A DNA stretch of 64,000 nucleotides from Chloroflexota bacterium (GCA_021783095.1 JAJXUG010000011.1:22322-86321), one strand, 5' to 3'; shown: positions 196-28,780, numbered from the stretch's first letter. The notes: generated by a model from the letters alone, not told the origin. Made by a program: numbers and translations.

Positions 196-1437
196 ATGGC
201 GGCGAAGACCATCCTGTTGATCGGCACGCTCGACACCAAGGGTCGGGAGTACGCCTACGTGCGCGACCTGATCCGGGCGCGCGGTCACCGGACGATCGTG
301 CTCGATGCTGGGGTCCTCGGCGAGCCCGCGTTCGAGCCTGACAGCCCTGCGGACAAGACCGCGCTCGCCGGGAACGGCAGCCTCGCGGAGCTGCGAGAGC
401 GGCGAGACCGGGGGCACGCGCTGGAGATCATGGGGCGGGGCGCCCGCGCCGTCGCGCTCGAGCTGCTGTCGGAGGGCAAGTTCGACGCCGTCATGGCCAT
501 GGGCGGGTCAGGCGGGACCTCCATCAGCGCAACGGCGATGCAGGCGCTGCCGGTTGGCATGCCCAAGCTGATCCTCTCGACGATGGCGTCGGGCAACGTG
601 GCTCCGTACGTCGACGTGAAGGACATCACGATGATGTACTCCGTCGTCGACGTCGCCGGCCTCAACAGTGTCTCGCGCCGCGTCATGGCCAACGCGGCCA
701 ACGCCATCAGCGGCATGGCGGAGCAGGAGGTCGGGGCCGCCGAGCAGAAGCCCCTGGTCGCCGCCACGATGTTCGGCGTCACGACGCCGTGCGTCGACCG
801 GCTCCGCGAGCGGATCGAGTCGGCCGGTTTCGAGGTCCTGGTCTTCCACGCCACCGGCAGCGGCGGCCGCGCGATGGAGTCGCTCATCGCCGACGGGTTC
901 GTGGCTGGCGTCGCCGACGTGACGACCACCGAGTGGTGCGACGAGCTCGTGGGCGGGGTGCTGTCCGCCGGCCCGGCACGGCTTGATGCTGCGGCGAGGG
1001 CGGGCGTTCCCCAGATCGTGTCGCTGGGTGCCCTCGACATGGTCAACTTCGGCCCGAAGGAAACTGTTCCCGAGCAGTTCCGCGGCCGGAACCTCTATGT
1101 GCACAACCCGCAGGTCACCCTGATGCGCACCACGCCAGACGAGTGCCGTCAGCTCGGCGAGATCATCGCCGGCAAGCTGAACGCAGCGACCGGCCCTGCC
1201 GCGCTGTTCATCCCGCTTCGGGGCGTGAGCATGATCGACGCCGAGGGCATGCCGTTCCACGACCCGGTCGCCGACGCCGCCCTGTTCGACGCCCTGCGGG
1301 CGCACCTCGACCGCTCCAAGGTCGATCTGGTCGAGATCGACGCCAACATCAACGACCCGGCCTTCGCGGACGCGATGGCCGATCGTCTGCTCGCCGAGCT
1401 GGGCGCTGCACCGGCCCTGGACACCCCGCGAACCTAG
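196..1437 (+). CDS. Tm-1-like ATP-binding domain protein (UPF0261)
   Basis: IGTLDTKG, GGSGGT, ATMFGVTTPCV, FHATGSGG and GALDMVNFG motifs; AAGGAGG RBS. Confidence 0.92.
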   Translation: MAAKTILLIGTLDTKGREYAYVRDLIRARGHRTIVLDAGVLGEPAFEPDSPADKTALAGNGSLAELRERRDRGHALEIMGRGARAVALELLSEGKFDAVMAMGGSGGTSISATAMQALPVGMPKLILSTMASGNVAPYVDVKDITMMYSVVDVAGLNSVSRRVMANAANAISGMAEQEVGAAEQKPLVAATMFGVTTPCVDRLRERIESAGFEVLVFHATGSGGRAMESLIADGFVAGVADVTTTEWCDELVGGVLSAGPARLDAAARAGVPQIVSLGALDMVNFGPKETVPEQFRGRNLYVHNPQVTLMRTTPDECRQLGEIIAGKLNAATGPAALFIPLRGVSMIDAEGMPFHDPVADAALFDALRAHLDRSKVDLVEIDANINDPAFADAMADRLLAELGAAPALDTPRT

Positions 1438-1497
1438 CCCGGCGCCCACCCCAGCGTTCAGCCAGTCCTCGCGCGTCCCGTCGAAAGGAGCACCGCG

Positions 1498-2340
1498 ATG
1501 CCGTTCATCCCGCGCGCAGAGGTGGAGCGCCGCCTTCGGGAACAGATCGCCGCCGGTCGGCCGATCGTCGGCTGCGGGGCCGGAACCGGGATCTCGGCCA
1601 AGATGGCCGAGGCGGGCGGCGCCGACATGGCGATCATCTACAACTCGGGGCGGTACCGGATGGCGGGCCGCGGGTCATTGGCCGGCCTGCTGGCGTACGG
1701 CGACGCCAACGCGATCGTCGTCGAGATGGCGGCCGAGGTCCTGCCGGTGGTGCGGTCGATGCCGGTGCTGGCCGGGGTCAACGGCACGGATCCGTTCCGG
1801 ATGATGCCGGTGTTCCTGCGCCAGCTGCGCGACATCGGCTTCGACGGCGTCCAGAACTTCCCGACCGTCGGCCTGATCGACGGCGACTTCCGGCGCAACC
1901 TCGAGGCGACGGGGATGTCCTACGAGCTCGAGGTGGCGATGGTGCGCGAGGCGCATGCTCTCGACCTGTTCACCTCCCCGTACGTGTTCGACCCGTCGCA
2001 GGCACGGGCCATGGCCGAGGCGGGCGCCGATCAACTGGTGGCGCACGTCGGCCTGACGACCGCGGGCACGATCGGCGCGGGCGTTGCGTTCACGCTCGAC
2101 CAGGCGATCGAGCGGGTGCTCGCGATCGCCGAGGCGGGGCGCTCGGTGCGGCCCGACATCATCGTGCTGTGCCACGGCGGCCCGTTCGACGAGCCCGGGC
2201 AGGTGGGCGAGGCGCTGCAGCGCATGCCCGGCGTGCACGGGTTCTTCGGCGCGTCGTCGATCGAGCGGCTCCCCACCGAGCGGGCGATCCGCGGGCAGGT
2301 CGCCGAGTTCAAGGCCCTCGCCACGGCCGGCGCTGCCTGA
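1498..2340 (+). CDS. Phosphoenolpyruvate hydrolase-like TIM-barrel protein (usual partner of UPF0261)
   Basis: [37 protein letters not shown] and [12 protein letters not shown] motifs; AGGAG RBS. Confidence 0.92.
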
Positions 2341-2374
2341 CGAACTCAGCCATTCGCGGGCGGGCGCCCGCGCG

Positions 2375-2536
2375 TTTCTGCCAGGCAGTACAAGGACGAC
2401 TGCGCGCACCGGCTGAAATCGTCCCTTCGGCGTGTGGCGACTGCCTGGCGGCGATTCGGCCCGATCTGGCCCGATACCCGCGTGTGCGGGGCCGCCCCAC
2501 AGGATCCGTAGTCGTCCTTCTACTGACTGGCGGAAC
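2375..2536. repeat. About 30-bp imperfect inverted repeats flanking about 100 bp (MITE/REPIN-like), between convergent genes
   Basis: 2375-2404 TTTCTGCCAGGCAGTACAAGGACGACTGCG matches the reverse complement of 2507-2536 at 25/30; partial third copy near 2439-2451. Confidence 0.65.
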
Positions 2537-2576
2537 GGCAGGATCTCCGCCGTCGCGGCGCCGCGGACAACCGGGT

Positions 2577-4703
2577 CTAGGCGCGCCCGGCGGCCACCTC
2601 GTCGGCACGATTCCGGCCTGCCAGCAGGATCAGGTCCTCGTGGAGCTCGAACCACACGCCGTGGTACGAGTCCACGCGCGGTGACGCCACGTACTTCCCG
2701 TTGCCCGAGGCGACGGCCTCGGCTGCGGCGGCAAGGCGGACGCCGTACTGGGCCAGCCTCGGCAGGCCTTGCGCAGCGGCGTCCAGCCAACGGACGACCT
2801 CGGCGTGCAGGGCCGCCAGCGATCCCAGCACCGCCGCGTCGTACGCGGCGTCCGTGTGCGGGTTGGGCGCTCCTTCCTTGAGCTGCCAGGCCGTTGCGAA
2901 CTCCTTGACGCGCCGGTCGAGCACGATGAAGGCGTCGAGCGCAGCGCTTGCGGCCGCCGTGCCCCACGACTCGCCGTCCGAGGCCACCAGCGCGTCGCCG
3001 ATCGCCTTCCCGGACGCTGTGAGCCTGAACGCGCCCGCGGACGGCTCGACGAGACCGCTCCCGACAAGGTCGTCCAGGATGGCCTTCGCCTCGTCGGCGC
3101 TGCAGCCGAGGGAGACCGCCACGCTGCCCGCGTCGCGGAAGTCGCGCACGACGAGCATCCGAAGCGCGTCGTCGGAGGTCGCGGAGCCGGTCGCGGCGCT
3201 GGCCGATTCGGCCTTGGGCGCGTCACCTTCCACCTCCCCGATGGCGATGCCGAGCTCGCGCGCCCACCCGAGCAGCACCTTGGCCTCTGGCACGACCTCC
3301 TCGACGCCCGCGGCACGACCCTCGAACACCTCGCCCGTGGACCCGTCGATGGAGAGCAGCGTGCCGGCCGGGAACGTCCGGCTGGCGATGGTCACCACGC
3401 CGCGAGCCGGGTCGGGCACCACCTCGGACGCCCCGACCACCGCCGGCGTGTTCCAGTCGCGGGCGACGACCGCGGCATGCGAGGCGAAGCCTCCGGTCGC
3501 TGTCAGGATCCCGCACGCGCGCGCCATGCCGTGCACGTCGTCGGGCGAGGTCTCCGCGCGGACAAGCAGTGGGTCGCGACCGGACTCCGCGGCCGCAATC
3601 GCCGCCTCGGCGGTCAGCGCCACCTCACCGCAGACCAGGCCCGGCGAGACACCCAGCCCCCGCGTCAGCGCGGAACCGGCCTGCCCGCCCTGCGCCACGC
3701 GCTTCGGCGGGCTCGCGAGGATCGCGGCGACCCGGCGGACGGCGGCGTCGCGGGTGAGCGGGAACGCGGGGTCCTCGGCCATCTCGACGGCCATCCGCAG
3801 CGCAGCCGGCTCCGTCCGCTTCGCCGTCCGGTCCTGGAGCATCCAGAGCCGGCGCCGCTCGATCGTGAACTCGATGTCCCGCGCGTCCGCGTAGTGGTGC
3901 TCGAGGCGCTCGGCATACGCATGAAGCTCCGCCGCCACCTCCGGCATCCGCTCCTCGAGACACGAGACCGGCAGGGTGTCGTGCGTGCCCGCCACGACGT
4001 CCTCGCCCTGGCCCCGGAACACCACATCGCCGTACAGCTGCGCCTCGCCCGTCGCGGGGTTGCGCGTGAACAGCACCCCGGTGCCGGATTCGTCGCCCAG
4101 GTTGCCGAAGACCATCGCCTGCACCACCACGCCGGTGCCCAGCGTCTCGCTGATCCCCTCGTGGGCGCGGTAGGCCTTCGCCTTCTCGCCGTTCCAGGAG
4201 CGGAACACCGCCTCGATGGCGCCGCGGAGCTGCTCCCACGGGTTGGTCGGCACCGTCTCCACGCCGACGACCGACCGGTAGAGCGCGTGGAACCGGTCGT
4301 GGCAGTTGCGCGCGAAGGCCGGGTCGGCCGATGCCGCCGCAAGCCCGTGCTCCGTCTCGCGGTTCAGCCCCAGGTTGAGGATCGTCTCCATCATCCCGGG
4401 CATCGACACGGGCGCCCCCGACCGCACCGACACGAGGAGCGGCTCCGCCGCGTCGCCGAACCGCCGTCCCACGATCGCCTCGAGCCGCGCCATGTGCTCG
4501 CGGATCTCGGCGTCAAGGCCCTCGGGCCAGCCCTCGGCGAGAAAGCGGTTGCAGGCCTCGGTCGTGATGACGAAGGCCGGGGGCACGGGCAGGCGCAGCG
4601 TCCGCGCCATGGCGTTGAGCCCGGCGGCCTTGCCCCCGACGAGCAGCTTGAGCTGGTCGAACGGGAGGTCGTGCAAGTGGTCGTACGTGTACACGAAGGG
4701 CAC
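2577..4703 (-). CDS. Pyruvate phosphate dikinase-like protein (ATP-grasp plus phospho-His domain) lacking the pyruvate-binding barrel, with a C-terminal wHTH/Rv1126c-like domain
   Basis: GGKAAGL, VSVRSGAPVSMPGMMETILNLG, QAMVFGN, GEDVVAG, DIEFTIE and GGFASHAAVVAR motifs; C-terminus ends in DSYHGVWFELHEDL. Confidence 0.85.
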   Translation of the reverse strand: MPFVYTYDHLHDLPFDQLKLLVGGKAAGLNAMARTLRLPVPPAFVITTEACNRFLAEGWPEGLDAEIREHMARLEAIVGRRFGDAAEPLLVSVRSGAPVSMPGMMETILNLGLNRETEHGLAAASADPAFARNCHDRFHALYRSVVGVETVPTNPWEQLRGAIEAVFRSWNGEKAKAYRAHEGISETLGTGVVVQAMVFGNLGDESGTGVLFTRNPATGEAQLYGDVVFRGQGEDVVAGTHDTLPVSCLEERMPEVAAELHAYAERLEHHYADARDIEFTIERRRLWMLQDRTAKRTEPAALRMAVEMAEDPAFPLTRDAAVRRVAAILASPPKRVAQGGQAGSALTRGLGVSPGLVCGEVALTAEAAIAAAESGRDPLLVRAETSPDDVHGMARACGILTATGGFASHAAVVARDWNTPAVVGASEVVPDPARGVVTIASRTFPAGTLLSIDGSTGEVFEGRAAGVEEVVPEAKVLLGWARELGIAIGEVEGDAPKAESASAATGSATSDDALRMLVVRDFRDAGSVAVSLGCSADEAKAILDDLVGSGLVEPSAGAFRLTASGKAIGDALVASDGESWGTAAASAALDAFIVLDRRVKEFATAWQLKEGAPNPHTDAAYDAAVLGSLAALHAEVVRWLDAAAQGLPRLAQYGVRLAAAAEAVASGNGKYVASPRVDSYHGVWFELHEDLILLAGRNRADEVAAGRA

Positions 4704-4760
4704 GGGCCGGTCCTCTGTTGGCTCGGGCCGCCGGGCACGCCGGCGGCGGGTCGGACGGAC

Positions 4761-5651
4761 TCAGACCACAGCGACGGGATCCACCATGGACCCCGTGGCG
4801 CCGCGGATCTTGACGGGGAGCGCGACGAACAGGAACTCGTGGACCTTCTGGCGCGCGAGCTCCTCGAGGTCGAGGCTCTCCATGATGTAGACGCCCCGCT
4901 CGATGAGGAGCGCCGTGTGGACCGGCTGCGGGTTGCCGGTGGGGCCGGGGTCCGGCGCGGGCTGGACCTCGAACGTCTCGGTGTCGGAACCGGCGGCGAT
5001 GACGCCCCGCTCGAGCAGCCAGCGGGCCGCGCTCGCGTCGGGGCCGGCCGTCTTGTGCGCGGCCATCCGCTCGGCATCGGGCCACAGGCCCATGTACCCC
5101 GTCCGGATGACGACGACGTCCCACGGGCGGACCTCGACGCCCTCGGCCGCGCAGATCGCGTCCATCTCGGCCGCGTCGATCGCCGAGCCCCTCGGCAGGC
5201 AGTCGATGCCTCGGTAGGCCGGGGCGTCGACCAGCACGCCGCGCGTGAAGAACGGCGGCATCTTGGACGCGTCGCCGTGCACTGGGCCGAAGTCGGTCAG
5301 ATGCTCATCGGCGCGGCCCCCGCCGTACCAGTGCATGTCGTCGTCCACCGTCATGTGGGCGAGCGCGTCCATGTGCGCGCCGGAGTGGGTCGTCGCCATC
5401 ACGTACTCGGCCATGTACCCGAGGCCCGCGTCGTTGACGGGTCCCCAGGGCTGGGCGCCCGCGACGCGGATGCCGCGAGGCGTGCGGAAGTTGAGCACCT
5501 GGAAGGGCGGGTGGCCGGGGAACAGCGGCATGCCCGGGAACCGCGGCGCCGCGAGCGAGATCATCCGCCCCTCGCGGACCAGCCTCGCAGCCGCCACCAC
5601 CTGCTCCGCGGGCATCTCGCCCACCGGCCCGACCTCGGCGTTCGCGCTCAT
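4761..5651 (-). CDS. Cyclase family (kynurenine formamidase-like) metal-dependent hydrolase
   Basis: HSGAHMDALAH, VIRTG, GSDT, PVHTALL and PVKIRGATGSMVDPVAV motifs; ATGA overlap with the upstream gene. Confidence 0.88.
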   Translation of the reverse strand: MSANAEVGPVGEMPAEQVVAAARLVREGRMISLAAPRFPGMPLFPGHPPFQVLNFRTPRGIRVAGAQPWGPVNDAGLGYMAEYVMATTHSGAHMDALAHMTVDDDMHWYGGGRADEHLTDFGPVHGDASKMPPFFTRGVLVDAPAYRGIDCLPRGSAIDAAEMDAICAAEGVEVRPWDVVVIRTGYMGLWPDAERMAAHKTAGPDASAARWLLERGVIAAGSDTETFEVQPAPDPGPTGNPQPVHTALLIERGVYIMESLDLEELARQKVHEFLFVALPVKIRGATGSMVDPVAVV

Positions 5652-7933
5652 CGTCGTCCCTCCGCGTCGCCGGGCACCGGCCCGGCCTGAAGCGCCCGCC
5701 AGACGCGCTCGGGCGTGAGCGGCAGATCTCGGATCGCCACGCCGGTCGCGTCCCGGATCGCGGCTGCCGCCGCCGGTGCCACGCACAGCAGCGCGCCCTC
5801 GCTCATGCCCTTGGACCCGTACGGACCCGGCCCGTCGGCGTTCTCCACGGCCTCGCTCCGCAGTTCGCGGGGCAGGTCCATCGAGGTCGGGATCCGGTAG
5901 TCGATGGCCCCCAGATTCCGGATGCGCCCCTCCTCGTCGAAGATGTAGTGCTCCATGAGCGTGTGGCCAAGGCCCATGATCGCCGCGCCCTCGTCCTGCA
6001 TCCGGACCTGGAGCGGGTTGAGCGCCTTGCCGACGTCGCTGACCGTGACGTGCCGGTGGATCGTCACGTCGCCGGTGTCGGCGTCCACCTCGGCCTCGAT
6101 GGCCGTGCAGTTGAACTCGAAGAACGCGGGGGCACCCGACAGCGGGTGCCCTGCCTCCGCCTCCTTGCGCATCTCGCCGAGGCCCGTGATCTCGCCGCCC
6201 AGCTTGCCGAGGCCGGCCGTGAGCACCTCGCGGATGGGCAGCTCCCGGCCGGATGCCAGGCGCACGAGCCCGTCGGCAACCGTGACGTCCGCCTCGTCCA
6301 GGCCCTGCTGGGCGGCGGCCATCGTCCGCAGCTTCGCCTGGATGTCCCGGCAGGCGGCGAGGACCGCGTTCCCCATGAGCACCGTGGAGCGGGAGGCCGA
6401 GGTCTGCTGGTCGTACGGGACGAGGGCGGTGTCGCCCATGGCGACCGTGACCCAGTCGAGGGGCGCGCCGAGCTCGTGGGCCGCGATCTGCGCGAAGACG
6501 GTCCGAGCGCCCTGGCCCATGTCCGATGTGCCGGCGTAGACCACGGCCGAGCCGTCGGCCAGGAGCCGCACGATCGAGTAGCTGAGGCCGGTCGTCGGCC
6601 CAGACTTGATGCCCAGCGCGATGCCGCGGCCATGGCCGGGCGGGCAGGGCTGGTCCCATCCGATCAGCTCGGCCGCCTTGCGGACGGCCTGCTCCCACTC
6701 GCCGTCGCAGGGCGTGTCGAACGGGATGAACCGGTCGCCCTTGCGGGCCAGGTTGCGCAGCCGCACCGCCACGGCGTCGATGCCCAGCTCCCGGGCGCCC
6801 TCGTCGATCGTGGACTCCACGGCCCAGTTGATCTGCGGGTTGCCGAAGCCGCGGAACGCAGTGGACGGCACGGTGTGCGAGAGGATCGCCCGGGCGACGA
6901 TGCGGACGGCCGGCACGTTGTAGGGGCCCGCCGCCGGGTACGAGCCTTTCCCCACCACGCGGTCCGCGATGTCGGTATAGGCGCCGATCAGGTAGTCGGC
7001 CTCGATGTCGTGGAAGGCGATCCGGCCGTCCGAGGTGAAGCCGGTCCTGACGCGCGCCTCGCAGGAAGCACGCCGAACTGCCTGGAAGGTCTCCTCGAGC
7101 GTGAGCACCAGGCGCACGGGCCGGCCGAGCCGGAGGGCGGCGAAGACGACGGCGGGCTCGTACTTCGCGTGCTGCTTGCCCCCGAAGGCGCCGCCCGGGT
7201 CGGGCGCGTACACCCGCACCCTCGAGAGCGGGAGGCGGGTGAGCCCGGCGATGGTCTTCTGGAGCCAGTTGGGGTGCTGGATCGTGGACCACACGGCCAC
7301 GCCATCGCCGTCTGGCGCGGCCATGAACGCGTGCGGCTCGATGGCGAAGTGCGTGACCATCGGGAAGGTGTAGCGGCGCTCGACGATCGTCAGGCCGTGC
7401 TCGGCGGCCGCGGCCTCGACGTCGCCCCACGCCACGACGTGCTCGTTGAGGACGTTCGTCTCACGCCGTGGGTCCTTCGGCCGCAGCGAGGGGTCCTGAA
7501 CCAGCGGCGCGTCCGCCGCCAGCGCCCCGGCAACCGTGAACACCGCCGGGAGGGCCTCGTAGTCCACGCGCACGGCAGCCGCGCCGGCCTCGGCCTCCTC
7601 CTTGGTGTCCGCCACCACGAGCGCCACGGGGTCGCCCTGGTACTTCGTCTCGCCCGTGGCCAGCACCGGCCGGTCCACGTTCTGCGGGCCGAACCGCGGC
7701 ATGGGCTGCGGGAGGTCGTCGGCGGTCAGCACGAGGCGCACGCCGGGCAGGGCGAGCGCCGCGGAGCCGTCGATGCGGTCGATCCGGGCGTGTGCAACGG
7801 GCACCGTAACGAGCTTCGCGTGGAGCGCGTCCGCGACGCTCAGGTCAGCGAGGTAGCGCTGCGCGCCCGTCACCCGGTCGATCCCGCCGACGCGGTTGGG
7901 CGAGGAGCCGATCGTGCCGTCGCGCGCGCTCAC
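5648..7933 (-). CDS. Xanthine dehydrogenase family molybdopterin-binding (large) subunit
   Basis: GGAFGGK, AFRGFGNPQ, DMGQG, SASRST and GPYGSKGMSEG motifs; GTG start overlapping the upstream stop. Confidence 0.92.
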   Translation of the reverse strand: MSARDGTIGSSPNRVGGIDRVTGAQRYLADLSVADALHAKLVTVPVAHARIDRIDGSAALALPGVRLVLTADDLPQPMPRFGPQNVDRPVLATGETKYQGDPVALVVADTKEEAEAGAAAVRVDYEALPAVFTVAGALAADAPLVQDPSLRPKDPRRETNVLNEHVVAWGDVEAAAAEHGLTIVERRYTFPMVTHFAIEPHAFMAAPDGDGVAVWSTIQHPNWLQKTIAGLTRLPLSRVRVYAPDPGGAFGGKQHAKYEPAVVFAALRLGRPVRLVLTLEETFQAVRRASCEARVRTGFTSDGRIAFHDIEADYLIGAYTDIADRVVGKGSYPAAGPYNVPAVRIVARAILSHTVPSTAFRGFGNPQINWAVESTIDEGARELGIDAVAVRLRNLARKGDRFIPFDTPCDGEWEQAVRKAAELIGWDQPCPPGHGRGIALGIKSGPTTGLSYSIVRLLADGSAVVYAGTSDMGQGARTVFAQIAAHELGAPLDWVTVAMGDTALVPYDQQTSASRSTVLMGNAVLAACRDIQAKLRTMAAAQQGLDEADVTVADGLVRLASGRELPIREVLTAGLGKLGGEITGLGEMRKEAEAGHPLSGAPAFFEFNCTAIEAEVDADTGDVTIHRHVTVSDVGKALNPLQVRMQDEGAAIMGLGHTLMEHYIFDEEGRIRNLGAIDYRIPTSMDLPRELRSEAVENADGPGPYGSKGMSEGALLCVAPAAAAAIRDATGVAIRDLPLTPERVWRALQAGPVPGDAEGRR

Positions 7934-8493
7934 TGGTCGAGGCCCTCGGCCGAGGTCTTCGCCCCGGCCCTGGCGCCGCCGGCATGGGCTCCGGCGCCGA
8001 GCCCACCCAGGTCCGGCGCGTCGCCGGCCGCGGCCTGGCCGATCGCCGCGAAGATCTGCTCGTAGCAGGCGCACCGGCACAGGTTGCCCGCCATACCCTC
8101 CTCGATCTCCGCACGCGTCGGGTGCGGGTGCTCCGCGAGCAGCGCGTGAGCCGACATCAGCTGCCCCGGGATGCAGAACCCGCACTGCACGCCGCCCTGG
8201 TCCAGGAACGCGGCCTGGATGGGCGCGAGCCGGCCGTCAGGCGAGGCGAGGCCCTCCACCGTCAGCACGTCTGCGCCGTCCGCCTCGACCGCCAGCACAA
8301 GGCAGGCGTCGACGCTCCACCCGTCCACGAGGACGGTGCAGGCGCCGCACTCGCCCACGAGGCAGCACTCCTTGCTGCCGGTGAGCCGGAGGTCCTCGCG
8401 CAGCACCTCGAGCAGCGTGTGGTGCGGGGCCACTGCTATCCGCCGCCGCGTGCCGTTCACGGTCAACTGGATCGGCAGGGTGGTCTGGGGCAT
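7930..8493 (-). CDS. Xanthine dehydrogenase family 2Fe-2S (small) subunit
   Basis: CCLVGECGACTV, QCGFCIPG and GNLCRCACY motifs; alternative GTG start at 8502. Confidence 0.93.
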   Translation of the reverse strand: MPQTTLPIQLTVNGTRRRIAVAPHHTLLEVLREDLRLTGSKECCLVGECGACTVLVDGWSVDACLVLAVEADGADVLTVEGLASPDGRLAPIQAAFLDQGGVQCGFCIPGQLMSAHALLAEHPHPTRAEIEEGMAGNLCRCACYEQIFAAIGQAAAGDAPDLGGLGAGAHAGGARAGAKTSAEGLDQ

Positions 8494-8498
8494 GGGCG

Positions 8499-9368
8499 TC
8501 ACTCCCCGGCCGCCAGGCGCGCCTGCGCCGTGGCGAGGGCCCGCCGGCCGAGCACCCGCAGCATCGCGAGCCGGTACTCGGGACCGGCGCGCATCGAGCG
8601 GGCGGACGGGCTGGCGTCCGCGAAGATGGTCTCGAAGACGGGAGCGCGGGCCTCGTCGGACGAGGCGGCATCGGCGAGGACGCCGGTGGTGTCGAGGCGC
8701 AGGACCGGGCGGGGCCCGACGCTGCCGTAGGCGATGCGGGCGAGGCCGCTCGCGTCGAGGCCACAGGCCAGCGTCACCGAGGCGAGGTCGTGGCCGCGGC
8801 GGCGGGTCCGCCGCTGGTGGGCGCTGGCGATCCGACCGGCCTCGGGGGCCGGGATCTCGATGGCCACAACGAGCTCGCCTGGCGCTAGGGTCGTCACGCC
8901 AGAGCGGACGAAGAAGTCGTCGAGCGCGATGCGCCGCTCGCCGGACGGGCCGTGGGCGACCACGACTGCACCGTGCACGAGCAGCGAGGGAGCCGTGTCG
9001 GCGGCCGGCGACGCGTTGCACAGGTTCCCCGCGAGCGTCGCACGGTTCCGGATCTGCACCGAGCCCACGACCGCTGCTGCCTCGGCGAGCCCGGCCAGAT
9101 CGCGCCGGACGAGTGGATGCGCCGCGATCTCCGTCATCGTCGTGGTCGCGCCGATGACGAGCGTCCCGCGGTCCCCCACCCGGATGCCCGGCGCGAGCTC
9201 GGGCACGCGCTTGACGTCCACCACGACGGCGGGCCGGGCAGAGCCGTCCCGCAGGCGGATGATCAGGTCGGTGCCGCCCGCGAGGACTCGTGCCTCAGCA
9301 CCCCGCTCCGCGAGCAGGGCGACGGCGTCGGCCAGCGTGTCGGGCCGGGCGTAAGTGAAGGGTCGCAT
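8499..9368 (-). CDS. Xanthine dehydrogenase family FAD-binding (medium) subunit
   Basis: LAGGTDL and QIRNRATLAGNLCNASPAAD motifs. Confidence 0.93.
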   Translation of the reverse strand: MRPFTYARPDTLADAVALLAERGAEARVLAGGTDLIIRLRDGSARPAVVVDVKRVPELAPGIRVGDRGTLVIGATTTMTEIAAHPLVRRDLAGLAEAAAVVGSVQIRNRATLAGNLCNASPAADTAPSLLVHGAVVVAHGPSGERRIALDDFFVRSGVTTLAPGELVVAIEIPAPEAGRIASAHQRRTRRRGHDLASVTLACGLDASGLARIAYGSVGPRPVLRLDTTGVLADAASSDEARAPVFETIFADASPSARSMRAGPEYRLAMLRVLGRRALATAQARLAAGE

Positions 9369-9386
9369 GCTCCGGCCCGGCGCCTC

Positions 9387-10277
9387 CTACAGGATCTTGT
9401 CGACCTCGTCCAGGAGGACCTGGGGGGTCGCCGCGCGGATGAAGTAGAACGGGCGATCGCAGAAGCTCGCGACGAAGTCGGCGCGCCGCTGGCGCAGCTG
9501 GTCATTGTCGAGCATCGGGATGACGTGCCCCGGCGCGAGCAGCTCGTTGGTCAGGAAGTAGTTCTGGAGCGAGTGCAGGAACTGGAACTGCGCCTCGAAC
9601 GGGATGAGGCGGTTCGTGGCCGGGTCGAAGTTGCCGTCGATCGCCGGGACGATGACGAGGTCGATGTTCGGCGGCTCGCCCTCGTACATGGCCCACGTGG
9701 GCATGCGGCCCCAGAACTTCTCGACGCCCTTGTTGGGCGCGGCCTTGTCCGAGCGCTCCGTGCCTTCCGTGCGCTTCACGAGGAACGGTGCCTCGGACCC
9801 CATGGCGGCCCTGCCGTCCTGGCTGATGACCGTCGTCTCCGACGCCACTTGGAGCGCGCCACGGATGCCCGCCTCGATGAGGCCCATGCTCTTGCCGTGG
9901 TTGGACTCGCCGCCCAGGAACAGGAGGGTCCTGCCGCGGTACTGGACCGCCGCGCTGTGCGACGGGTGCAGGCCAACGTCCTCCATGCGCAGGGCGAGGA
10001 CGGCCACGATCACCTTCTGGAGCGGCCCAGCCGGCCAGTTTCCGGTGAACGTCACGGTGCGGCCGTCGTAGCGGACGGCCTTGTCGCCGTCCTGCTGCCA
10101 CACGATGTCGGGCGCGTCCAGCGTGACCGTCGGGGAGATCCGGACATCGGCGAGGCGGTAGTTGAGGAACGTGAGGTCGTCGAGCACGTGCTCGCGCGGC
10201 TCGCCACCATGGACGTCGACCCGGAGGCGGGCGGCGCCCGCCGAGAACTCCTCGGTCAGCCTGAGCGTGTCGTTCAT
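9387..10277 (-). CDS. Hypothetical protein with a divergent HPr-kinase/PEPCK-type P-loop
   Basis: LHPSHSAAVQYRGRTLLFLGGESNHGKS resembles the HprK-related H-x-A-A...GxSGxGKS pattern; GAAAGG RBS; strong coding bias. Confidence 0.6.
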   Translation of the reverse strand: MNDTLRLTEEFSAGAARLRVDVHGGEPREHVLDDLTFLNYRLADVRISPTVTLDAPDIVWQQDGDKAVRYDGRTVTFTGNWPAGPLQKVIVAVLALRMEDVGLHPSHSAAVQYRGRTLLFLGGESNHGKSMGLIEAGIRGALQVASETTVISQDGRAAMGSEAPFLVKRTEGTERSDKAAPNKGVEKFWGRMPTWAMYEGEPPNIDLVIVPAIDGNFDPATNRLIPFEAQFQFLHSLQNYFLTNELLAPGHVIPMLDNDQLRQRRADFVASFCDRPFYFIRAATPQVLLDEVDKIL

Positions 10278-10385
10278 CGTGTCCTTTCTCGATCGGGGAA
10301 GGGGCTGGGACGCTGGGGGACGGGACGCTGGGGGACGGGCGGCGCTCGAGCCCGGGGGCCCGGGCGCCGCTGCCGTGCGTCTCGG

Positions 10386-12119
10386 CTAGAGGATCGTCAC
10401 CTCGCCGACGTTGCCGTCGACGCGGATCCGGTCCCCGGTCTTGATGCGATAGGTGCCGACCGAGGTTCCGACGACGGCCGGGATCTCGTACTCGCGGGCG
10501 AGCACGGCCGGGTGGGCAACCATGTCGCCGGCGTTGGTCACGACCGCGATGATCTTGCCGTACAGCACCTGCCATGCCGGGTTGGTCATCTCGCAGACGA
10601 GGATCTCGCCCGGGACGAGGCTGTCGAACTCGTCGGTGGATATGACGACGCGCGCCGTGCCCTCGACGACGCCCGGCGACCCGCCGATGCCGACGATCGT
10701 CTTGCCGTGCATCTCGCGCGGCCGGTTGAACTTGTCGGGGAAGCCCCACAGGTTGAGGTACGGGAAGGCGAGCTGCGTCGCCGTCGCGGTCCCCACCCAG
10801 TCCACGGGCCGGACCTTCTCGGCGGCCTCGCGCTTGGCGCGCGCCGCGGCCACCATCGCCCGGCCGGCCTCCGGCTCCGGGGCGCCCATGAACTCGCGGA
10901 GCGCGTTGTAGCGGAACAGGATCACGTCGTCCGGGCGGTCCAGCATGCCCATCTCGACGAGCTTCTCGCCGATGGCGATGAGCACGAGTCGGACATGCGC
11001 GTTGGCGCCCTGGTCGATGTAGAAGTGGTGGTCCGGCGTGAGCGGGGCCATCTTGAGGTTGATGTCGTTGGCGGTGCGCATCTCCTCGAGCGCCTCGCCC
11101 TCGAGCCCCTCGAGGATCTCCCGGCTCGCCGCCTCGATGTCGGCCTTGAGGGCCGCGACCTTGGTCGGGTAGTCGTAGTCGGAGGTGTACTGGTCGCGGA
11201 CCAGCTGGATCACCGGGTTCATGTCCTCGCGGAACGAGGGATAGATGAACTCGTGGCTCCAGACCGCGTGCCAGCCGAACTCCTTCTGGTACGGGACGAC
11301 GCGCTCGTCGATGAAGCGGCGCCCGCGCTCGGTGGCATGGAGGGCCGGGATGATCTCGTGGGCCGTGGGCTGCTCGAAGGCCGCCTTGAGCGCGTCGTCG
11401 CCCTTGAGCTCCTCCTTCATCTCCCACAGCGCGTGGATCTTGTCCCAGTTCCGGTCATCGGCGGAGTTCTGGAGCCGGCCGAGGAGGACCTGGTCCACCT
11501 TGCCGTGGGTCTTCTCCATGACCGCCCTGAGGTTGAGCGTCGCGCTGAGCTGCGCGAAGTTCAGCATCCAGTGGATCTTCCAGTGGCGGTCGTGCATGTC
11601 GACGGCGTCCTCGAGGAGGACAGCCAGGTCGGCAAGGGACAGCTCCGCCTTCCGGTCGAGCATCGCCTCGATGTAGTCGAAGTTGCGCTGCATCTCGGGG
11701 ACGAAGCGGGTCTTCCACCAGAAGGTGAAGTTGTTGCCATAGACCGGCAGCACGAGGCCCAGGTACGCCCCGATCTTGGCGACGTACTCGTTGTCCTCGG
11801 GGACGATGGGGTTCGTCCGGTAGTTGTACTCCTGCGTGTCCACCACGATGCCCGCCTCGGCGGGGATGGCGGTCGTGTACAGGTACCCGTTGATGTTCTT
11901 GTAGATCCAGTCCGTCGCGAACGGCGTCCCGAATCGGCGGAACATGTGGTCGCAGGAGAGCCACCAGCCGCCGATGTCCTCGTACATCGGGCTCAGCGGC
12001 TTGGGGCAGTGGAGATCGTCGAAGACCCAGAACAGGAGCTTCTCGGTCTCGGACGCCCACTCGATCGGGAACGTCTCGTCCCCGAGGAACTGGCCCAGGA
12101 CCTCTTCCTTGAGCGGCAC
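10386..12119 (-). CDS. PEP-utilising enzyme: substrate-binding domain plus mobile phospho-His domain (rifampin phosphotransferase/PpsA C-terminal-like), no ATP-grasp
   Basis: GIGGSPGVVEGTARVV, GEILVCEMTNPAW, AHPAVLAREYEIPAVVG and IRVDGNVGEV motifs; AAGGAGG RBS before the GTG start. Confidence 0.85.
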   Translation of the reverse strand: MPLKEEVLGQFLGDETFPIEWASETEKLLFWVFDDLHCPKPLSPMYEDIGGWWLSCDHMFRRFGTPFATDWIYKNINGYLYTTAIPAEAGIVVDTQEYNYRTNPIVPEDNEYVAKIGAYLGLVLPVYGNNFTFWWKTRFVPEMQRNFDYIEAMLDRKAELSLADLAVLLEDAVDMHDRHWKIHWMLNFAQLSATLNLRAVMEKTHGKVDQVLLGRLQNSADDRNWDKIHALWEMKEELKGDDALKAAFEQPTAHEIIPALHATERGRRFIDERVVPYQKEFGWHAVWSHEFIYPSFREDMNPVIQLVRDQYTSDYDYPTKVAALKADIEAASREILEGLEGEALEEMRTANDINLKMAPLTPDHHFYIDQGANAHVRLVLIAIGEKLVEMGMLDRPDDVILFRYNALREFMGAPEPEAGRAMVAAARAKREAAEKVRPVDWVGTATATQLAFPYLNLWGFPDKFNRPREMHGKTIVGIGGSPGVVEGTARVVISTDEFDSLVPGEILVCEMTNPAWQVLYGKIIAVVTNAGDMVAHPAVLAREYEIPAVVGTSVGTYRIKTGDRIRVDGNVGEVTIL

Positions 12120-12314
12120 GTGTGCCTCCTTGTCCGGAGAGTGGTGTGCTGCATCGGCGGACCCTCCCCGCCGGTGAGCGAGCTCGGGTGTCGGTCTCCC
12201 TTGGTCCGGTCTCAGCCTCCTGGTGTCGGGTCCCGGCCGGCGGGTCCGGCCGCCGCCCCTCGCCGCGCACGCGAGTGGAAGCGCCTGGTGACGCCGCGGG
12301 GGACGCTGCGACGG

Positions 12315-12389
12315 TTGCCGTCCGGTGGCGTCGCGGTATTCTTCGATAATCGATTACTGATGGTAGGGACGCCCACGTCAGCCCGTCAA
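12315..12389. promoter_or_regulatory. Face-to-face divergent sigma70-like promoters with an operator-like motif between them
   Basis: + strand TTGCCG-16-TATTCT (12315-12342); - strand TTGACG-18-TACCAT (12389-12360); TCGATAATCGATTACTGAT at 12343-12361. Confidence 0.65.
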
Positions 12390-12473
12390 GGGCCGCCGAA
12401 CTCGCGCCCCGCCCGATGCCAACGACTGACAGCGGACGAGCGCTCACGCCCCGTCCGGCCCGGAGGTCCGCCG

Positions 12474-12842
12474 ATGTTCACCCGTATCGCCCGCGAGGAT
12501 GCCGAGCAGCATCCCCTCCCCGGTCGCGTCTGGCATTCGTACTTCGGGCCCGGCAGCGGCGTGTCCGAGCGCGTCTCGCTGGGGGCATCCGTCTACCCGC
12601 CGGGGTCGAAGCCTGAAGGCCATGTGCACCCGGGCGAGGAGGAGACCATCTACTGCGCCGCTGGCCGCGGCCGGATCGTGACGCCCGACGGCGTCGCCGA
12701 CGTCTCGCCCGGCGTGGTCGTCCACGTCGCGCCCGGCACATTCCATGCGACAGAGGCTGACGGGCCCGAGCCGCTCGAGCTGCTGTGCATCTTCACGCCG
12801 CCGGTGGTCTCGGGCTCGTACGAGAACAAGGAGCCGGCATGA
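12474..12842 (+). CDS. Cupin domain protein
   Basis: GHVHPGEEETIY and VAPGTFHAT cupin motifs; GGAGG RBS; ATGA overlap with the next gene. Confidence 0.85.
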   Translation: MFTRIAREDAEQHPLPGRVWHSYFGPGSGVSERVSLGASVYPPGSKPEGHVHPGEEETIYCAAGRGRIVTPDGVADVSPGVVVHVAPGTFHATEADGPEPLELLCIFTPPVVSGSYENKEPA

Positions 12843-13747
12843 GCGCCTCGGTTGCGGCGGATCCCCATCTCGACCACCTGCGCGAGATGGCGCGCCGGAT
12901 CCGGGTGGAGGTCATCCGCTCCGTGTACCACGCGAAGGCCGGCCACCTGGGCGGTCCCCTCTCGGCGGCCGACCTCCTCGCCGCGCTGTACTTCCATGAG
13001 CTGCGGGTCCGCCCCGAGGAGCCGCGCTGGGAGGACCGCGACCGGTTCATCCTGTCCAAGGGCCACTCGTCGATCGGGCTCTACGCCGCGATGGCGCTGC
13101 GCGGCTTCTTCACGCTCGAGGAGCTGCTCACCTTCGACGGCGCCAACTCCCGCCTCCAGGGCCACCCCGACATGACGCGCCTGCCCGGCCTCGACATGTC
13201 GACGGGCTCCCTGGGCATGGGCATCTCGGCCGGGATGGGCATGGCGCTCGGCGCCCGACTCACCGGCCGCGACGTCCGCGTCTTCGTGATGCTCGGCGAC
13301 GGCGAGTGCCAGGAGGGCGAGGTCTGGGAGGCCGCGATGGCCGCGCCCCGCTACCGGCTCGACAACCTCGTCGTCATCGTCGACCACAACCGTCTCCAGC
13401 AGTACGGCTGGCCCGGCGATGGCCCCGACGGCCGCATGGCTCCGCAGGCCCCGGGCGAGCTCGTCGCGAAGTGGCACGCCTTCGGCTGGCGCGTGCTCCA
13501 CATCGACGGTCACGACATGGCCTCGATCCTCGACGCATTCGAGCAGGCGGCTGCGGGCGACGGCAGGCCGGCCGTCATCATTGCCGACACCGTGAAGGGC
13601 AAGGGCGTCTCGTTCATGGAGGGCCGCTACTTCTGGCACACGCGGGCGATCAAGCCCGAGGAGTACGCGCAGGCGATGCGCGACCTGGGCGAGCCCGACC
13701 CCGCGGCCGATCCCCAGGCGGCCGTCGCGCCGGAGGCTGTCCGATGA
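12839..13747 (+). CDS. Transketolase N-terminal (TPP-binding) subunit
   Basis: GHLGGPLS, DRFILSKGH, LQGHP, STGSLGMG and GDGECQEGEVWEA motifs. Confidence 0.93.
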   Translation: MSASVAADPHLDHLREMARRIRVEVIRSVYHAKAGHLGGPLSAADLLAALYFHELRVRPEEPRWEDRDRFILSKGHSSIGLYAAMALRGFFTLEELLTFDGANSRLQGHPDMTRLPGLDMSTGSLGMGISAGMGMALGARLTGRDVRVFVMLGDGECQEGEVWEAAMAAPRYRLDNLVVIVDHNRLQQYGWPGDGPDGRMAPQAPGELVAKWHAFGWRVLHIDGHDMASILDAFEQAAAGDGRPAVIIADTVKGKGVSFMEGRYFWHTRAIKPEEYAQAMRDLGEPDPAADPQAAVAPEAVR

Positions 13748-14691
13748 CGACGATGACGATGGGCCGACCGCAGCGAGAGGTCTTCGGCGAGACGGTTGCC
13801 GCCCTGGCGAACGACGACCCCCGGGTGGTGGTGGTCGACGGCGACGTGGGCTCGTCCACGCGGGCGGACATCTTCGAGAAGGCGCACCCGGACCGCTACC
13901 TCCAGATGGGCATCGCGGAGCAGAACATGCTCGGCGTCGCCGCCGGGCTCGCGACGATGGGCCTCGTGCCGTTCATCAGCACCTTCGTCGCGTTCGCGGT
14001 CGTGCGGCCGCTCGACCAGGTGCGCGTCCTCATCGCCCAGCCCTCGGCCAACGTGAAGATCACGCCGAGCTATGGCGGCCTGTCCACCGGCCAGACCGGG
14101 ATGAGCCACATCATCGTCGACGACATCGCGATCATGCGGTCGCTGCCCAACATGGCGGTCGTCCTCCCCGCGGACGACACGGAGGCCGACGAGGTCCTCC
14201 GCTGGGCTGCGGCCCACGTGGGACCGGTCTACGTGCGGCTCGGCCGCGACGCCACGCCGCGCGTCTTCGGCCCGGACCACGCCTTCCGGCTCGGCCGAGC
14301 CGAGGTGGTCCGCGAGGGCTCGGACGTGACGCTCATCTCGACCGGCGGGCAGACGGCCAGAACCCTCGAGGCGGCGGAGCTGCTCGCCGCACAAGGGATC
14401 TCGGCACACGTCCTCCACGTCGCCACCGTCAAGCCGCTCGACATCGATGCGATCGTGGCCGCGGCCGGGCGGACCGGACGGGTGATCACGGTCGAGGAGG
14501 GCACGGTGATCGGCGGGCTGGGTGGTGCCGTCGCGGAGGCGCTGGGCGAGCACCGGCCGACGCGCGTGCATCGGATCGGCCTCCAGGACGTCGACGTGCA
14601 GTCGGGGCCCAACGACGCGCTGCTCGACATCTACGGGCTGTCCGGCGCGCGCGTTGCCGAGCAGGTTCGGCGCATCCTCGCCCAGGGCTGA
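13744..14691 (+). CDS. Transketolase C-terminal (pyrimidine-binding) subunit
   Basis: GIAEQNM, GPVYVRLGR and TVEEGTVIGGLG motifs; ATGA overlap. Confidence 0.93.
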   Translation: MTTMTMGRPQREVFGETVAALANDDPRVVVVDGDVGSSTRADIFEKAHPDRYLQMGIAEQNMLGVAAGLATMGLVPFISTFVAFAVVRPLDQVRVLIAQPSANVKITPSYGGLSTGQTGMSHIIVDDIAIMRSLPNMAVVLPADDTEADEVLRWAAAHVGPVYVRLGRDATPRVFGPDHAFRLGRAEVVREGSDVTLISTGGQTARTLEAAELLAAQGISAHVLHVATVKPLDIDAIVAAAGRTGRVITVEEGTVIGGLGGAVAEALGEHRPTRVHRIGLQDVDVQSGPNDALLDIYGLSGARVAEQVRRILAQG

Positions 14692-14739: not shown

Positions 14740-15417
14740 TCAGCGGGCGGCGGCGGCTTCGGGCACGTCCCAGCCCGCGCGAAGCATCCCGGCCGCCTCG
14801 TCGAAGTGGTGGCGCAGTGCCTCCTGCACCGCCTCGGCATCCCGCGCCTGAAGCGCGTCGAGCACGGCTCGATGCAGATCGGTCGTCCAACTGGGCCCCT
14901 CTCGGGCCGACGCGATCGTGATGTACGTCCGCGAGAAGGGCTCCACCGTGCCCCAGGTGCGCTGGAGCGTCAGGCTGCCCGACTGCCGCACCAAGCGCGC
15001 GTGGAACGCCGAATCGGCGCGTGCCGCCTCATGGCGGTCACCGGTCGCGGCCGCCGCCTCCATCGCCCCCTGGAGCCTCGCGAAGTCCGCGAGGTCGGAG
15101 TCGGCGAGGAGCGGGACCGCCAGACGGGCGGCAAGACATTCAAGCTCGCACCGCACGACGAATGCCTCGATCAGCTCGTCGAGCGAGGGTCGTCGGACAC
15201 GGGCGCCCTGGAACGGCAGGATCTCGACGAGCCCGAGCGCCTCGAGCGCTCGGAGCGCTTCGCGGACGGGCGCCTGGCTGACGCCCAGCTCGCGGGCGAC
15301 GCGGGTCTCCACGATCCGGCTGTCGGGAGGGTAGCGGCCATCGAGGATGCCCTGGAGCAGGCGGTCCCCCACCTGCTCTGCGAGAACGCTGCGCTGGATC
15401 GAGATGTGGTCTGGCAT
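14740..15417 (-). CDS. GntR (FadR/FCD) family transcriptional regulator
   Basis: RIVETRVARELGVSQAPVREAL wHTH and ADSAFH FCD motif. Confidence 0.93.
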   Translation of the reverse strand: MPDHISIQRSVLAEQVGDRLLQGILDGRYPPDSRIVETRVARELGVSQAPVREALRALEALGLVEILPFQGARVRRPSLDELIEAFVVRCELECLAARLAVPLLADSDLADFARLQGAMEAAAATGDRHEAARADSAFHARLVRQSGSLTLQRTWGTVEPFSRTYITIASAREGPSWTTDLHRAVLDALQARDAEAVQEALRHHFDEAAGMLRAGWDVPEAAAAR

Positions 15418-16379: not shown

Positions 16380-17237
16380 TCAGGAGGACGTCGTGGCCCC
16401 AACGCCGGGCAGGGACGTCCGCGGGTCAGCCGCGTCGGGCTCGAGCAGCGCGGCCCGGAGGCGTGCTCCCGCCGCGCCAAGCCCCAGCCACTGCCCGACG
16501 TAGGCATCCATGGAGCCGTGGACCAGGGCGACCTCCTCGAGCCCCGCGCGCAGGTACGACGCCCGCACGCCAACCAGGGCGTCGAGGTCCGCCTCGTCCC
16601 CTCCGTCCGCCACGTGGCGCTCGATGGCCGGCCGCATCAGTTCACGGATGGCCTCGTTGCCCGCCATGTAGTCGGCAAGGACCTCGGCCTCGCCCACGCC
16701 GAGGTAGGTAAGGAGGACGGCTGCGGCCCATCCGGTGCGGTCCTTCCCCGTCGAGCAGTGGAAGACCGCGGGCAGTGCGCCCTCGGACGCCAGCGACGCC
16801 AGCAGCAGCCCGAAGGCTCGGCGAGGGCTGTCGCCCGTCACGAAGTCGCGGAACTTGGCCTCGAAGCCGGCCTCGGCGCGGCCGTCACCGAAGGCAGCCT
16901 GCCGCTGCGCGGGCGTCTCGAGCGCGTGGAGCTGCCACATCGGGCTGCGCACCACGTCGTCGCGGTTGACGTCGGCGACGACGTACGCGGTGCCAGCCGG
17001 GAGCAGGTGCGCTTCCGGCGCGCGCTCGCGCTCCCATGCCGACCGAAGGTCGACGACCGTGCGAACGCCGATCCGCTCGAGGGTCGCGAGGTCGCGGGCG
17101 GATGCCCGAGCCAGGGCCGGCGACCGGAACAGCAGCCCCGACCGGACGCGGAGGCCATCGGCGGCGGGGAGACCGCCGAGGTCGCGGAGGTTGGGCAGGT
17201 CGAAGGCGGGCGCGCCAACGGGCATCGGCGAGGTCAT
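16380..17237 (-). CDS. Tyrosine/serine phosphatase family protein (Y_phosphatase3, PtpB/IphP-like)
   Basis: NLRDLGG, VVDLRS and HCSTGKDRTG (Cx5R P-loop). Confidence 0.9.
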   Translation of the reverse strand: MTSPMPVGAPAFDLPNLRDLGGLPAADGLRVRSGLLFRSPALARASARDLATLERIGVRTVVDLRSAWERERAPEAHLLPAGTAYVVADVNRDDVVRSPMWQLHALETPAQRQAAFGDGRAEAGFEAKFRDFVTGDSPRRAFGLLLASLASEGALPAVFHCSTGKDRTGWAAAVLLTYLGVGEAEVLADYMAGNEAIRELMRPAIERHVADGGDEADLDALVGVRASYLRAGLEEVALVHGSMDAYVGQWLGLGAAGARLRAALLEPDAADPRTSLPGVGATTSS

Positions 17238-17246
17238 GCGGCGTGA

Positions 17247-17915: not shown

Positions 17916-17947
17916 CGCTCCTCCACTCGCGCCGCAGGGCCGGGTCG

Positions 17948-17990
17948 TTGACCGGCCTCCACGGGTCCCGTATTCTCGATCATCGATGAT
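17948..17990 (+). promoter_or_regulatory. Sigma70-like promoter with an operator-like motif over the start site
   Basis: TTGACC-17-TATTCT followed by TCGATCATCGATGAT (17976-17990). Confidence 0.65.
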
Positions 17991-18034
17991 ACGGCGCGCA
18001 GCAAGGTACTGGAGCGCCTGGGAGAAGGAGCCGC

Positions 18035-25089: not shown

Positions 25090-25091
25090 GC

Positions 25092-28722: not shown

Positions 28723-28749
28723 CGGTCCCCGCTGTGGAAGAGGCTGATG

Positions 28750-28780
28750 GCGGGGGCGCCGACGGCGTCGGCGCCCCCGC
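28750..28780 (-). terminator. 14-bp stem-loop after the solute-binding protein gene (mRNA stabiliser or partial terminator)
   Basis: GCGGGGGCGCCGAC-ggc-GTCGGCGCCCCCGC. Confidence 0.6.

Follow-up and report, generated by a model that had tools for sequence, protein, structure and literature searches.

Gene content of the operon

A stretch of 64,000 nucleotides from a Chloroflexota bacterium (GCA_021783095.1, JAJXUG010000011.1:22322-86321; the whole stretch is hereafter called the window) carries an operon of seven minus-strand genes at positions 2577-12119, with a dikinase-type pair of genes at its two ends. The first gene encodes a 577-amino acid (aa) protein of the phosphoenolpyruvate (PEP) utiliser family, and the last a 708-aa protein related to pyruvate phosphate dikinase (PPDK). 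The G+C content of the window is about 72%, and its nearest relatives are uncultured Chloroflexota whose records are labelled Limnocylindria or Limnocylindrales. The gene set was obtained from a third-position G+C filter together with Pfam and NCBIfam scans. The features of the operon are as follows.

12389-12360, minus strand: promoter-like site about 240 bases 5' of the first gene (1 found vs 0.2 expected; consensus match only)
10386-12119, minus strand: 577-aa PEP-utiliser protein (Pps577), putative H-type dikinase component with a substrate-binding domain like that of rifampin phosphotransferase (RPH) and a C-terminal swivel
about 10404-10613, minus strand: swivel domain of the 577-aa protein (His536 codon at 10512-10514)
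9387-10277, minus strand: 296-aa protein of no family (unk296), by fold a small P-loop protein resembling PEP carboxykinase (PEPCK) and HprK
8499-9368, minus strand: FAD subunit of a molybdenum hydroxylase of the xanthine dehydrogenase (XDH) family (PF00941, E 2e-48; PF03450; NCBIfam XdhB-like, below cut-off)
7930 to about 8502 (start approximate), minus strand: 2Fe-2S subunit of the hydroxylase (PF01799, PF00111; NCBIfam XdhC-like, 183 bits vs cut-off 217)
5648-8185 (open reading frame as listed), minus strand: molybdopterin subunit of the hydroxylase (PF01315, PF02738, PF20256)
4761-5645, minus strand: cyclase-family metal hydrolase of about 294 aa (PF04199, E 8.2e-22)
2577-4703, minus strand: 708-aa PPDK-like protein (PPDKs; PPDK_N and PEP-utilizers)
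3699-4703, minus strand: ATP-grasp domain of the 708-aa protein, residues 1 to about 335, PPDK type
3294-3692, minus strand: swivel phosphohistidine domain of the 708-aa protein, residues about 338-470 (PF00391; His409 codon at 3477-3479)
2580-3191, minus strand: C-terminal extension of the 708-aa protein, residues 505-708, a MarR-like winged helix and a helical bundle in place of the PEP/pyruvate barrel

From the 577-aa gene onward, the intergenic gaps are about 108, 18 and -4 bases, then an overlap, then 2 and 57 bases, and a site scan found no terminator-like sites in 2300-13000. An initial annotation, made from the DNA alone, had placed both dikinase-type genes in one operon, and the seven same-strand genes with small or negative gaps and no terminator-like site bear this out. 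One rice-paddy RNA-seq run has contigs that are 92-96% alike to the 577-aa, 296-aa and cyclase genes over part of their length; these contigs come from relatives, are no proof of transcription and are silent on co-transcription, and stretches without cover carry no meaning. The shares of below 0.2 in DNA runs from soil and rhizosphere were not taken as evidence on habitat. The top NCBIfam rows for the molybdopterin subunit were all far under their cut-offs. Its true start is probably near 7930, as the family matches run from about residue 91 onward.

Pfam recognised two domains in the 708-aa protein, PPDK_N (E 3.1e-46) and, at residues 379-457, PEP-utilizers (E 5e-18); the protein also contains the motif GGFASHAAVVAR. 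There was no Pfam match to PEP-utilizers_C. Solved PPDKs matched the protein (1ggo, E 6.7e-107) in an alignment that stops at residue 484. NF004531, the NCBIfam model of the 'short' PPDK of the VadK kind, was passed with 490.5 bits (cut-off 456), and the full PPDK model TIGR01828 was failed (482 vs 843 bits). The AlphaFold2 model (predicted local distance difference test score, pLDDT, 88.5) placed the ATP-grasp domain at residues 1 to about 335, the swivel at about 338-470, a disordered segment at 490-505, a winged helix at 507-580 and a helical bundle at 578-704; as modelled, the protein has no TIM barrel. The modelled ATP-grasp domain superposed on RPH (5hv1) with Z 23.8 and a root-mean-square deviation (rmsd) of 2.2, and on HpeI (9goj) with Z 18.0. 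The modelled swivel superposed on 2fm4 with Z 17.7 and rmsd 2.4. The initial annotation had read this gene as an ATP-grasp and a histidine domain without a PEP/pyruvate barrel, which agrees with Pfam, with the end of the PPDK alignment and with the model. It had made no mention of the conserved winged-helix and helical-bundle domain in the C-terminal 200 residues.

Residues K22, Q335, R337 and H455 of PPDK map to K25, Q290, R292 and H409 of the 708-aa protein, and all four are unchanged in 29/29 aligned proteins of the 708-aa type. The invariant ATP-site residues and H409 are consistent with a Mg-ATP-dependent autophosphorylation of H409. The regulatory threonine of PPDK, T453, is Ala407 in the 708-aa protein. 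A true PPDK of 939 aa (E 3.9e-283 end to end) is encoded on another contig of the same genome, with 42% identity over residues 17-504 of the 708-aa protein. A 788-aa relative in another locus (L070:1826-4192, minus strand) keeps the ATP-grasp insert of about 60 residues found in canonical PPDK together with the same C-terminal extension; judged by its sequence, it resembles a form midway from PPDK to the short type.

The winged helix at 507-580 of the AlphaFold2 model has the MarR family fold (Z 10-12.4, rmsd 1.3-2.0 over 71-74 residues), and the extension carries the invariant motifs NDH.D..YD and SYH..WFELHE. Among 1.84 billion representative sequences, 1374 relatives of the extension were found at E up to 0.001 and 849 at E up to 1e-10. 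Most of the 150 relatives listed are short: 12 are below 170 aa, 84 are 170-260 aa (74 of these with an initial methionine), 30 are 261-600 aa, 22 are 601-800 aa and 2 exceed 800 aa. The stand-alone relatives retain the NDH.D..YD and WFELH motifs. They are mainly from Actinomycetota in the Atlas, where one cluster is auto-named 'transcriptional regulator family'. Pfam and NCBIfam scans of the extension and five stand-alone relatives gave weak winged-helix matches under cut-off and no covering model. A word-indexed search with the extension mainly recovered pieces of the same fused proteins, and no named partner from actinobacteria was among its results. The best structural likeness of the helical bundle, to the FAT-like domain of p130Cas (Z 12.8), was given no meaning, being within the range of unrelated helical bundles.

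The 577-aa protein matched Pfam PEP-utilizers at residues 503-572 (E 1.1e-18) and contains the motif AHPAVLARE, and it has no Pfam match to PPDK_N and no ATP-grasp domain. These Pfam results uphold the initial description of a large N-terminal domain and a histidine domain with no ATP-grasp. Residues 377-577 align with residues 681-866 of rifampin phosphotransferase 5fbs (E 1.2e-19), and the precomputed Pfam labels of the protein's cluster are PF00391 and PF27448, the latter being Rph_4th. Models of PRK08296, RPH, RedH and PigC gave long matches over most of the protein, all of them sub-threshold. The best of the curated PpsA-like models (the PRK08296 series), NF006153, scored 153.2 bits against a cut-off of 578, and the rifampin phosphotransferase model NF041857 scored 90.1 bits against 999. 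By its model scores, the 577-aa protein belongs to a subfamily related to, but separate from, the PpsA-like models.

The two-component dikinases PpsAB (phenol), CreHI (4-cresol) and HpeHI/AcvAB (hydroxyphenylethanones) consist, according to the available text of PMC12167813, of an H component with a substrate domain and the swivel histidine, and an I component that is a stand-alone ATP-grasp protein. The same source states that H components require the separate ATP-grasp protein and that replacing the histidine by glutamine kills the activity. The chemistry that marks this kind of enzyme is the transfer of phosphate from ATP to a hydroxyl group by way of a pyrophospho- or phosphohistidine, with AMP as a product. 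Judged by its domains, the 577-aa protein is an H-type component of this kind, with substrate-binding and swivel parts. Its orthologues are 64-90% identical over 80 fetched loci. H536 is unchanged in 31/31 sequences, in which more than 200 further columns are also invariant. The residues before the catalytic histidine read AGDMVAH in the window and AGG..SH in most relatives. No other gene of the cluster is as well conserved across lineages as the 577-aa gene, whose G+C content (0.65 in 11001-12000) is lower than that of its flanks (0.70-0.75).

Sequence searches with the 296-aa protein were empty in Pfam at E up to 10, in NCBIfam and with phmmer against the PDB. The AlphaFold2 model of the protein (pLDDT 85) superposed over its whole length on the ATP-dependent PEPCK 1ii2_B (Z 11.1, 250 residues aligned, rmsd 5.2; Foldseek E 3.2e-7), and over residues of about 101-296 on HPr kinase/phosphorylase (Z 9.2-9.7). 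The family has an invariant P-loop, FLGGESN.GKSM. At the level of fold, then, the model has a P-loop nucleotide-binding domain of the PEPCK/HprK type. HPr kinase/phosphorylase and ATP-dependent PEPCK share with it both the fold and the position of the P-loop; however, it is about half the size of PEPCK and has no sequence-family match. In most relatives a GntR gene lies between the 577-aa and 296-aa genes, where the window has a gap of 108 bases, and DNA contigs of relatives have 777 extra letters at 10288-10384.

The probable ATP-grasp partner in related genomes

The genes that accompany the 577-aa orthologue were surveyed in 92 loci, of which 80 were fetched, 11 came from other genomes and one was the window itself, by tblastn with the window proteins. 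A gene of the 708-aa type was found in 59 loci and a stand-alone I-type ATP-grasp gene in 8; no locus had both and 25 had neither. All of the 25 have less than 11.5 kb of DNA downstream of the 577-aa gene, and where at least 11.5 kb was present the 708-aa type was found in 53/53 loci. A stricter coverage filter gave 57, 8, 0 and 27, respectively. The pairing of the 577-aa and 708-aa genes is not due to chance. The 296-aa gene occurs together with the gene of the 708-aa type in 54/57 loci, and the cyclase-family hydrolase is 69-92% identical across 47 loci.

In other families of the phylum, a stand-alone ATP-grasp gene lies 1.5-5 kb from the distant 577-aa orthologue in 8/8 fetched loci. That of locus L093 encodes 343 aa with PF01326 (E 5.4e-98) and no PF00391 or swivel. 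The I-type ATP-grasp proteins are of the PEP synthase/RPH/HpeI type (5hv6, 2e-57; 9goj, 5.8e-57). Neither the 708-aa type nor the 296-aa gene occurs in any of the eight I-type loci (0/8 for each). Loci with the one partner type and loci with the other have almost the same swivel motif in the 577-aa protein. The initial annotation had held that a separate ATP-grasp partner conserved beside homologues of the 577-aa protein would speak against its proposal. Such a partner was found, to the letter, in the distant homologues. However, these are loci without the 708-aa type, and so the finding argues for a partner role of the 708-aa protein and not against it.

The phylum was also sampled through 301 genomes (unpublished genomes G232 and G043 enter the denominators only). 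The nine genomes with a 577-aa orthologue at least 66% identical are the same nine in which the C-terminal extension is matched strongly. In G229, a tenth genome, the extension match is weak and partial (36% identity, bundle part only) and has no PPDK-like neighbour, and this genome was set aside. The I-type loci come from 8 of the 13 sampled genomes whose 577-aa orthologue is 48-58% identical in the genome search, or 45-57% by tblastn over the loci. Only two PPDK_N frames occur in the window's own genome, which is 90% complete, namely those of the 708-aa gene and of the full-length PPDK, and no stand-alone I-type ATP-grasp gene (about 340-390 aa, no swivel) was found in the window or in that genome. 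Five related genomes likewise had no small ATP-grasp-only frame; their PPDK_N frames are 728-1087 aa, bar one uninformative 72-aa frame at a contig start. Between lineages, the 708-aa type and the classical stand-alone ATP-grasp protein take each other's place.

Two representative proteins, the two relatives of the extension above 800 aa, join both protein types on one chain. In P0214 (1230 aa) and P0239 (1234 aa) an RPH-like half with its swivel is followed by a short PPDK and then by the extension, and both swivels are kept. The short-PPDK parts scored 458 and 515.5 bits with NF004531, respectively, and an hhalign comparison of residues 259-538 of P0239 with the 577-aa family gave a probability of 99.7 and E 3e-26.

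The I-type clusters (for example L093, 10817-13647, minus strand; L091, 17050-18102, plus strand) also contain a gene of the fumarylacetoacetate hydrolase family, an ABM monooxygenase and, in some cases, a DUF4202 gene, all three of which the window's cluster lacks.

Neighbouring genes

The genes next to the operon are as follows.

196-2340, plus strand: UPF0261 gene (MarK-like kinase family) and PEP-hydrolase-like barrel gene (1498-2340), converging on the operon
12785-13747 and about 13750-14691, plus strand: split transketolase (PF00456; PF02779 and PF02780), divergent from the operon
14740-15417 and 17247-18053, minus strand: two GntR/FCD regulators
16380-17246, minus strand: Y_phosphatase3 (tyrosine-phosphatase family) gene (PF13350, E 2.8e-57)

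The UPF0261 pair is present in 31/92 loci, in many relatives directly 5' of the 577-aa gene and on the same strand, and in the distant loci L093 and L094 the UPF0261 protein is 59-61% identical. The possibility was considered that the PEP-hydrolase-like barrel (1498-2340) is the missing barrel acting in trans. It was dropped because the barrel gene always travels with UPF0261 and the pair is found in just those 31 loci. By analogy with CreD, HpeD and AcvF, the Y_phosphatase3 gene could be a candidate aryl-phosphate phosphatase; homologues lie near the cluster in just 5 other loci and the link to the operon is weak. A label of 2-oxoacid dehydrogenase E1 for 12785-14691 was replaced by split transketolase on the Pfam matches. 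Many relatives have transketolase homologues next to the cluster. A transaldolase-family gene (40 loci) and a Zn-alcohol dehydrogenase (48 loci) often accompany them; both are missing from the window's cluster.

Further along the window, 24157-36463 holds sugar or inositol-like catabolic genes: two ROK genes, an ABC sugar transporter, two GFO/IDH/MocA oxidoreductases, a xylose-isomerase-like barrel and a DeoC-type aldolase. On the minus strand, 40350-42932 encodes a HypF carbamoyltransferase, a protein of hydrogenase maturation. The region 44838-55155 contains a corrinoid methyl-transfer set consisting of a pterin-binding methyltransferase, an MTHFR-like protein, a RACo-type activase, a B12-binding protein and two MttB-family genes (51972-53582 and 53383-55155). 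Its gene families suggest a system for demethylating quaternary amines or methylamines.

Source of the phosphoryl group

The best-supported explanation is that the two proteins form one dikinase acting on a non-pyruvate small molecule, as the initial annotation proposed; that kind of enzyme had already been described, so the operon holds a variant and not a new system. It is a variant of the two-component dikinases and of the pairing of dikinase and molybdenum hydroxylase in the 3hpd cluster of Ensifer. The new element is the partner, a VadK-like short PPDK instead of a stand-alone PEP-synthase-type ATP-grasp protein. The operon would accordingly encode an ATP-dependent dikinase for a small molecule, made of two components and serving a molybdenum hydroxylase pathway. 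The acceptor would be bound by the 577-aa protein, with His536 of its swivel as the carrier of the phosphoryl group. The balance of the evidence inclines towards the 708-aa protein supplying the nucleotide site for this H component, its ATP-grasp domain meeting H536, and the usual I-type subunit would have been displaced in the window's lineage. By analogy with the known systems, the acceptor is probably a hydroxylated aromatic or N-heteroaromatic ring, which is then attacked by the hydroxylase. His409, the fused winged-helix and bundle domain and the 296-aa protein would most likely dock, relay or regulate the transfer.

PpsAB, CreHI and HpeHI resemble the window pair in having a separate RPH-like and swivel H component and a separate ATP-grasp protein, and in being encoded in catabolic clusters for ring compounds. 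However, the ATP-grasp partner in the window is of the PPDK type and not the PEP-synthase type, it has its own swivel histidine and a 200-aa domain, and the operon adds the small PEPCK-like protein. RPH and PigC/RedH share the three functional modules and the swivel mechanism of the window pair, but have the modules on one chain in the order ATP-grasp, substrate domain, swivel, whereas the 577-aa protein has no ATP-grasp domain. In Ensifer adhaerens HP1, an XDH-family 3-hydroxypyridine dehydrogenase needs a PEP-utilising mobile-domain gene and a PPDK-annotated gene (the cluster's orf9 and orf10, orf9 being the one annotated as PPDK), whose role is left unexplained in the available text of the preprint (10.1101/2020.01.08.898148). 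This 3hpd cluster and the window operon both group an XDH-family hydroxylase, an H-type or mobile-domain gene and a PPDK-annotated or ATP-grasp gene with a GntR regulator, a likeness in gene content. The HpdA dehydrogenase, however, has a fourth, SRPBCC subunit that was not found among the open reading frames of the window operon, and the maleamate-pathway genes are absent from the window.

The 708-aa protein is also like VadK (Rv1127c), the short PPDK of Mycobacterium tuberculosis, and the proteins of NF004531, in having a PPDK-derived ATP-grasp domain and a conserved swivel histidine without a PEP/pyruvate barrel. It differs in size (708 vs about 490 aa) and in its fused winged-helix and bundle domain, where VadK has a separate small operon partner, Rv1126c, with which it co-purifies (available text of PMC13400623). 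The settings differ too: a molybdenum hydroxylase operon with an H-type component for the 708-aa protein, and methylcitrate genes for VadK. A literature term search gave no paper joining VadK or Rv1126c with two-component dikinases among the matches listed.

Several points weigh against a dikinase in which the 708-aa protein serves H536 directly. The two genes are five genes apart, whereas those of HpeHI are adjacent. Competition for the ATP site is to be expected between H536 and the tethered swivel of the 708-aa protein. Apart from the 577-aa protein (45-57% identical), the I-type clusters are far removed in their genes (molybdenum subunit 32-37% and cyclase 24% identical); the I-type and 708-aa-type clusters may be sister systems for other substrates and not strict orthologues. 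Moreover, co-occurrence in one gene cluster among related genomes is non-independent evidence. The fusions are rare, as a search with P0239 gave 29 hits and no second full-length fusion; their H part shares just 27-30% identity with the 577-aa protein, and errors of gene calling or assembly could have joined the halves. Finally, the C-terminal winged helix resembles a DNA-binding fold, and VadK has been read as an enzyme-binding regulator and not as a dikinase subunit (PMC13400623, available text).

These last two points lead to an explanation that is judged unlikely, in which the 708-aa protein is a VadK-like sensor that autophosphorylates and controls the operon or the hydroxylase through the winged helix or by binding an enzyme. 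The reading of VadK as a regulatory kinase and the MarR-like fold of residues 507-580 agree with this, as do the stand-alone 200-aa relatives of the C-terminal domain with their one cluster auto-named as a regulator family. The phosphate of the 577-aa protein would then come from elsewhere; the canonical PPDK might donate it, for instance, or it might be exchanged from an aryl phosphate that the UPF0261 (MarK-like) kinase produces. The UPF0261 family, which phosphorylates aromatics (MarK; PMC12624787, available text), is indeed encoded in or near many of these clusters; however, the pair is present in just 31/92 loci. Furthermore, a sensor would leave the invariant His536 without a dedicated ATP site in exactly the lineage that has no I-type gene. 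GntR/FCD regulators are already present in the clusters, and in the fusions the H part shares a chain with the short PPDK.

A phosphorelay is likewise judged unlikely. In a relay the phosphoryl group would pass from ATP to His409, as in VadK, then to His536 and then to the small molecule, in a His-to-His chain like that of the PEP-dependent phosphotransferase system (PTS), with the C-terminal domain as the docking site. Both swivel histidines are invariant and both swivels are retained in P0214 and P0239. The swivel histidine of VadK is autophosphorylated (PMC13400623), and an H component alone swaps phosphate between aryl phosphates and phenols (PMC12167813), both according to the available texts. 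However, transfer from swivel to swivel is not reported in the available text of the cited literature, and the ATP-grasp protein of the I-type clusters serves the same swivel motif directly, so that a relay is unneeded for the chemistry. That the two genes are unrelated PEP-utiliser-family members which merely share an operon, as their distance of five genes might allow, is very improbable given their retention in 53/53 long loci, the mutual exclusion with the I-type gene and the existence of fusions.

Should the 708-aa protein simply serve the 577-aa protein as its ATP-grasp subunit, the addition is a modest one, a subunit swap in a known kind of enzyme. Two unannotated and widespread domains are nevertheless brought to attention, the 200-aa winged-helix and bundle domain with its 1374 representative relatives and the small PEPCK-like protein. 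The operon also joins two puzzles, namely why some molybdenum hydroxylases need a dikinase of the phenol-kinase type, as in the 3hpd cluster, and to what the phosphohistidine of the VadK kind hands its phosphate. It offers a conserved and apparently non-pathogen setting in which an H-type acceptor without its normal ATP-grasp protein is always found with a VadK-like protein. A bolder and rather unlikely proposal is that short PPDKs of the VadK type, instead of being regulators that stand alone, are portable nucleotide-charging modules, each with its own swivel histidine and a winged-helix and bundle domain for docking, that feed separate substrate-binding swivel proteins by a PTS-like relay; the relay would drive the phosphorylation that the molybdenum hydroxylase needs, and the PEPCK-like protein would be a third phosphotransfer or control element. 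If true, this would give the orphan phosphohistidine of the VadK family a physiological acceptor.

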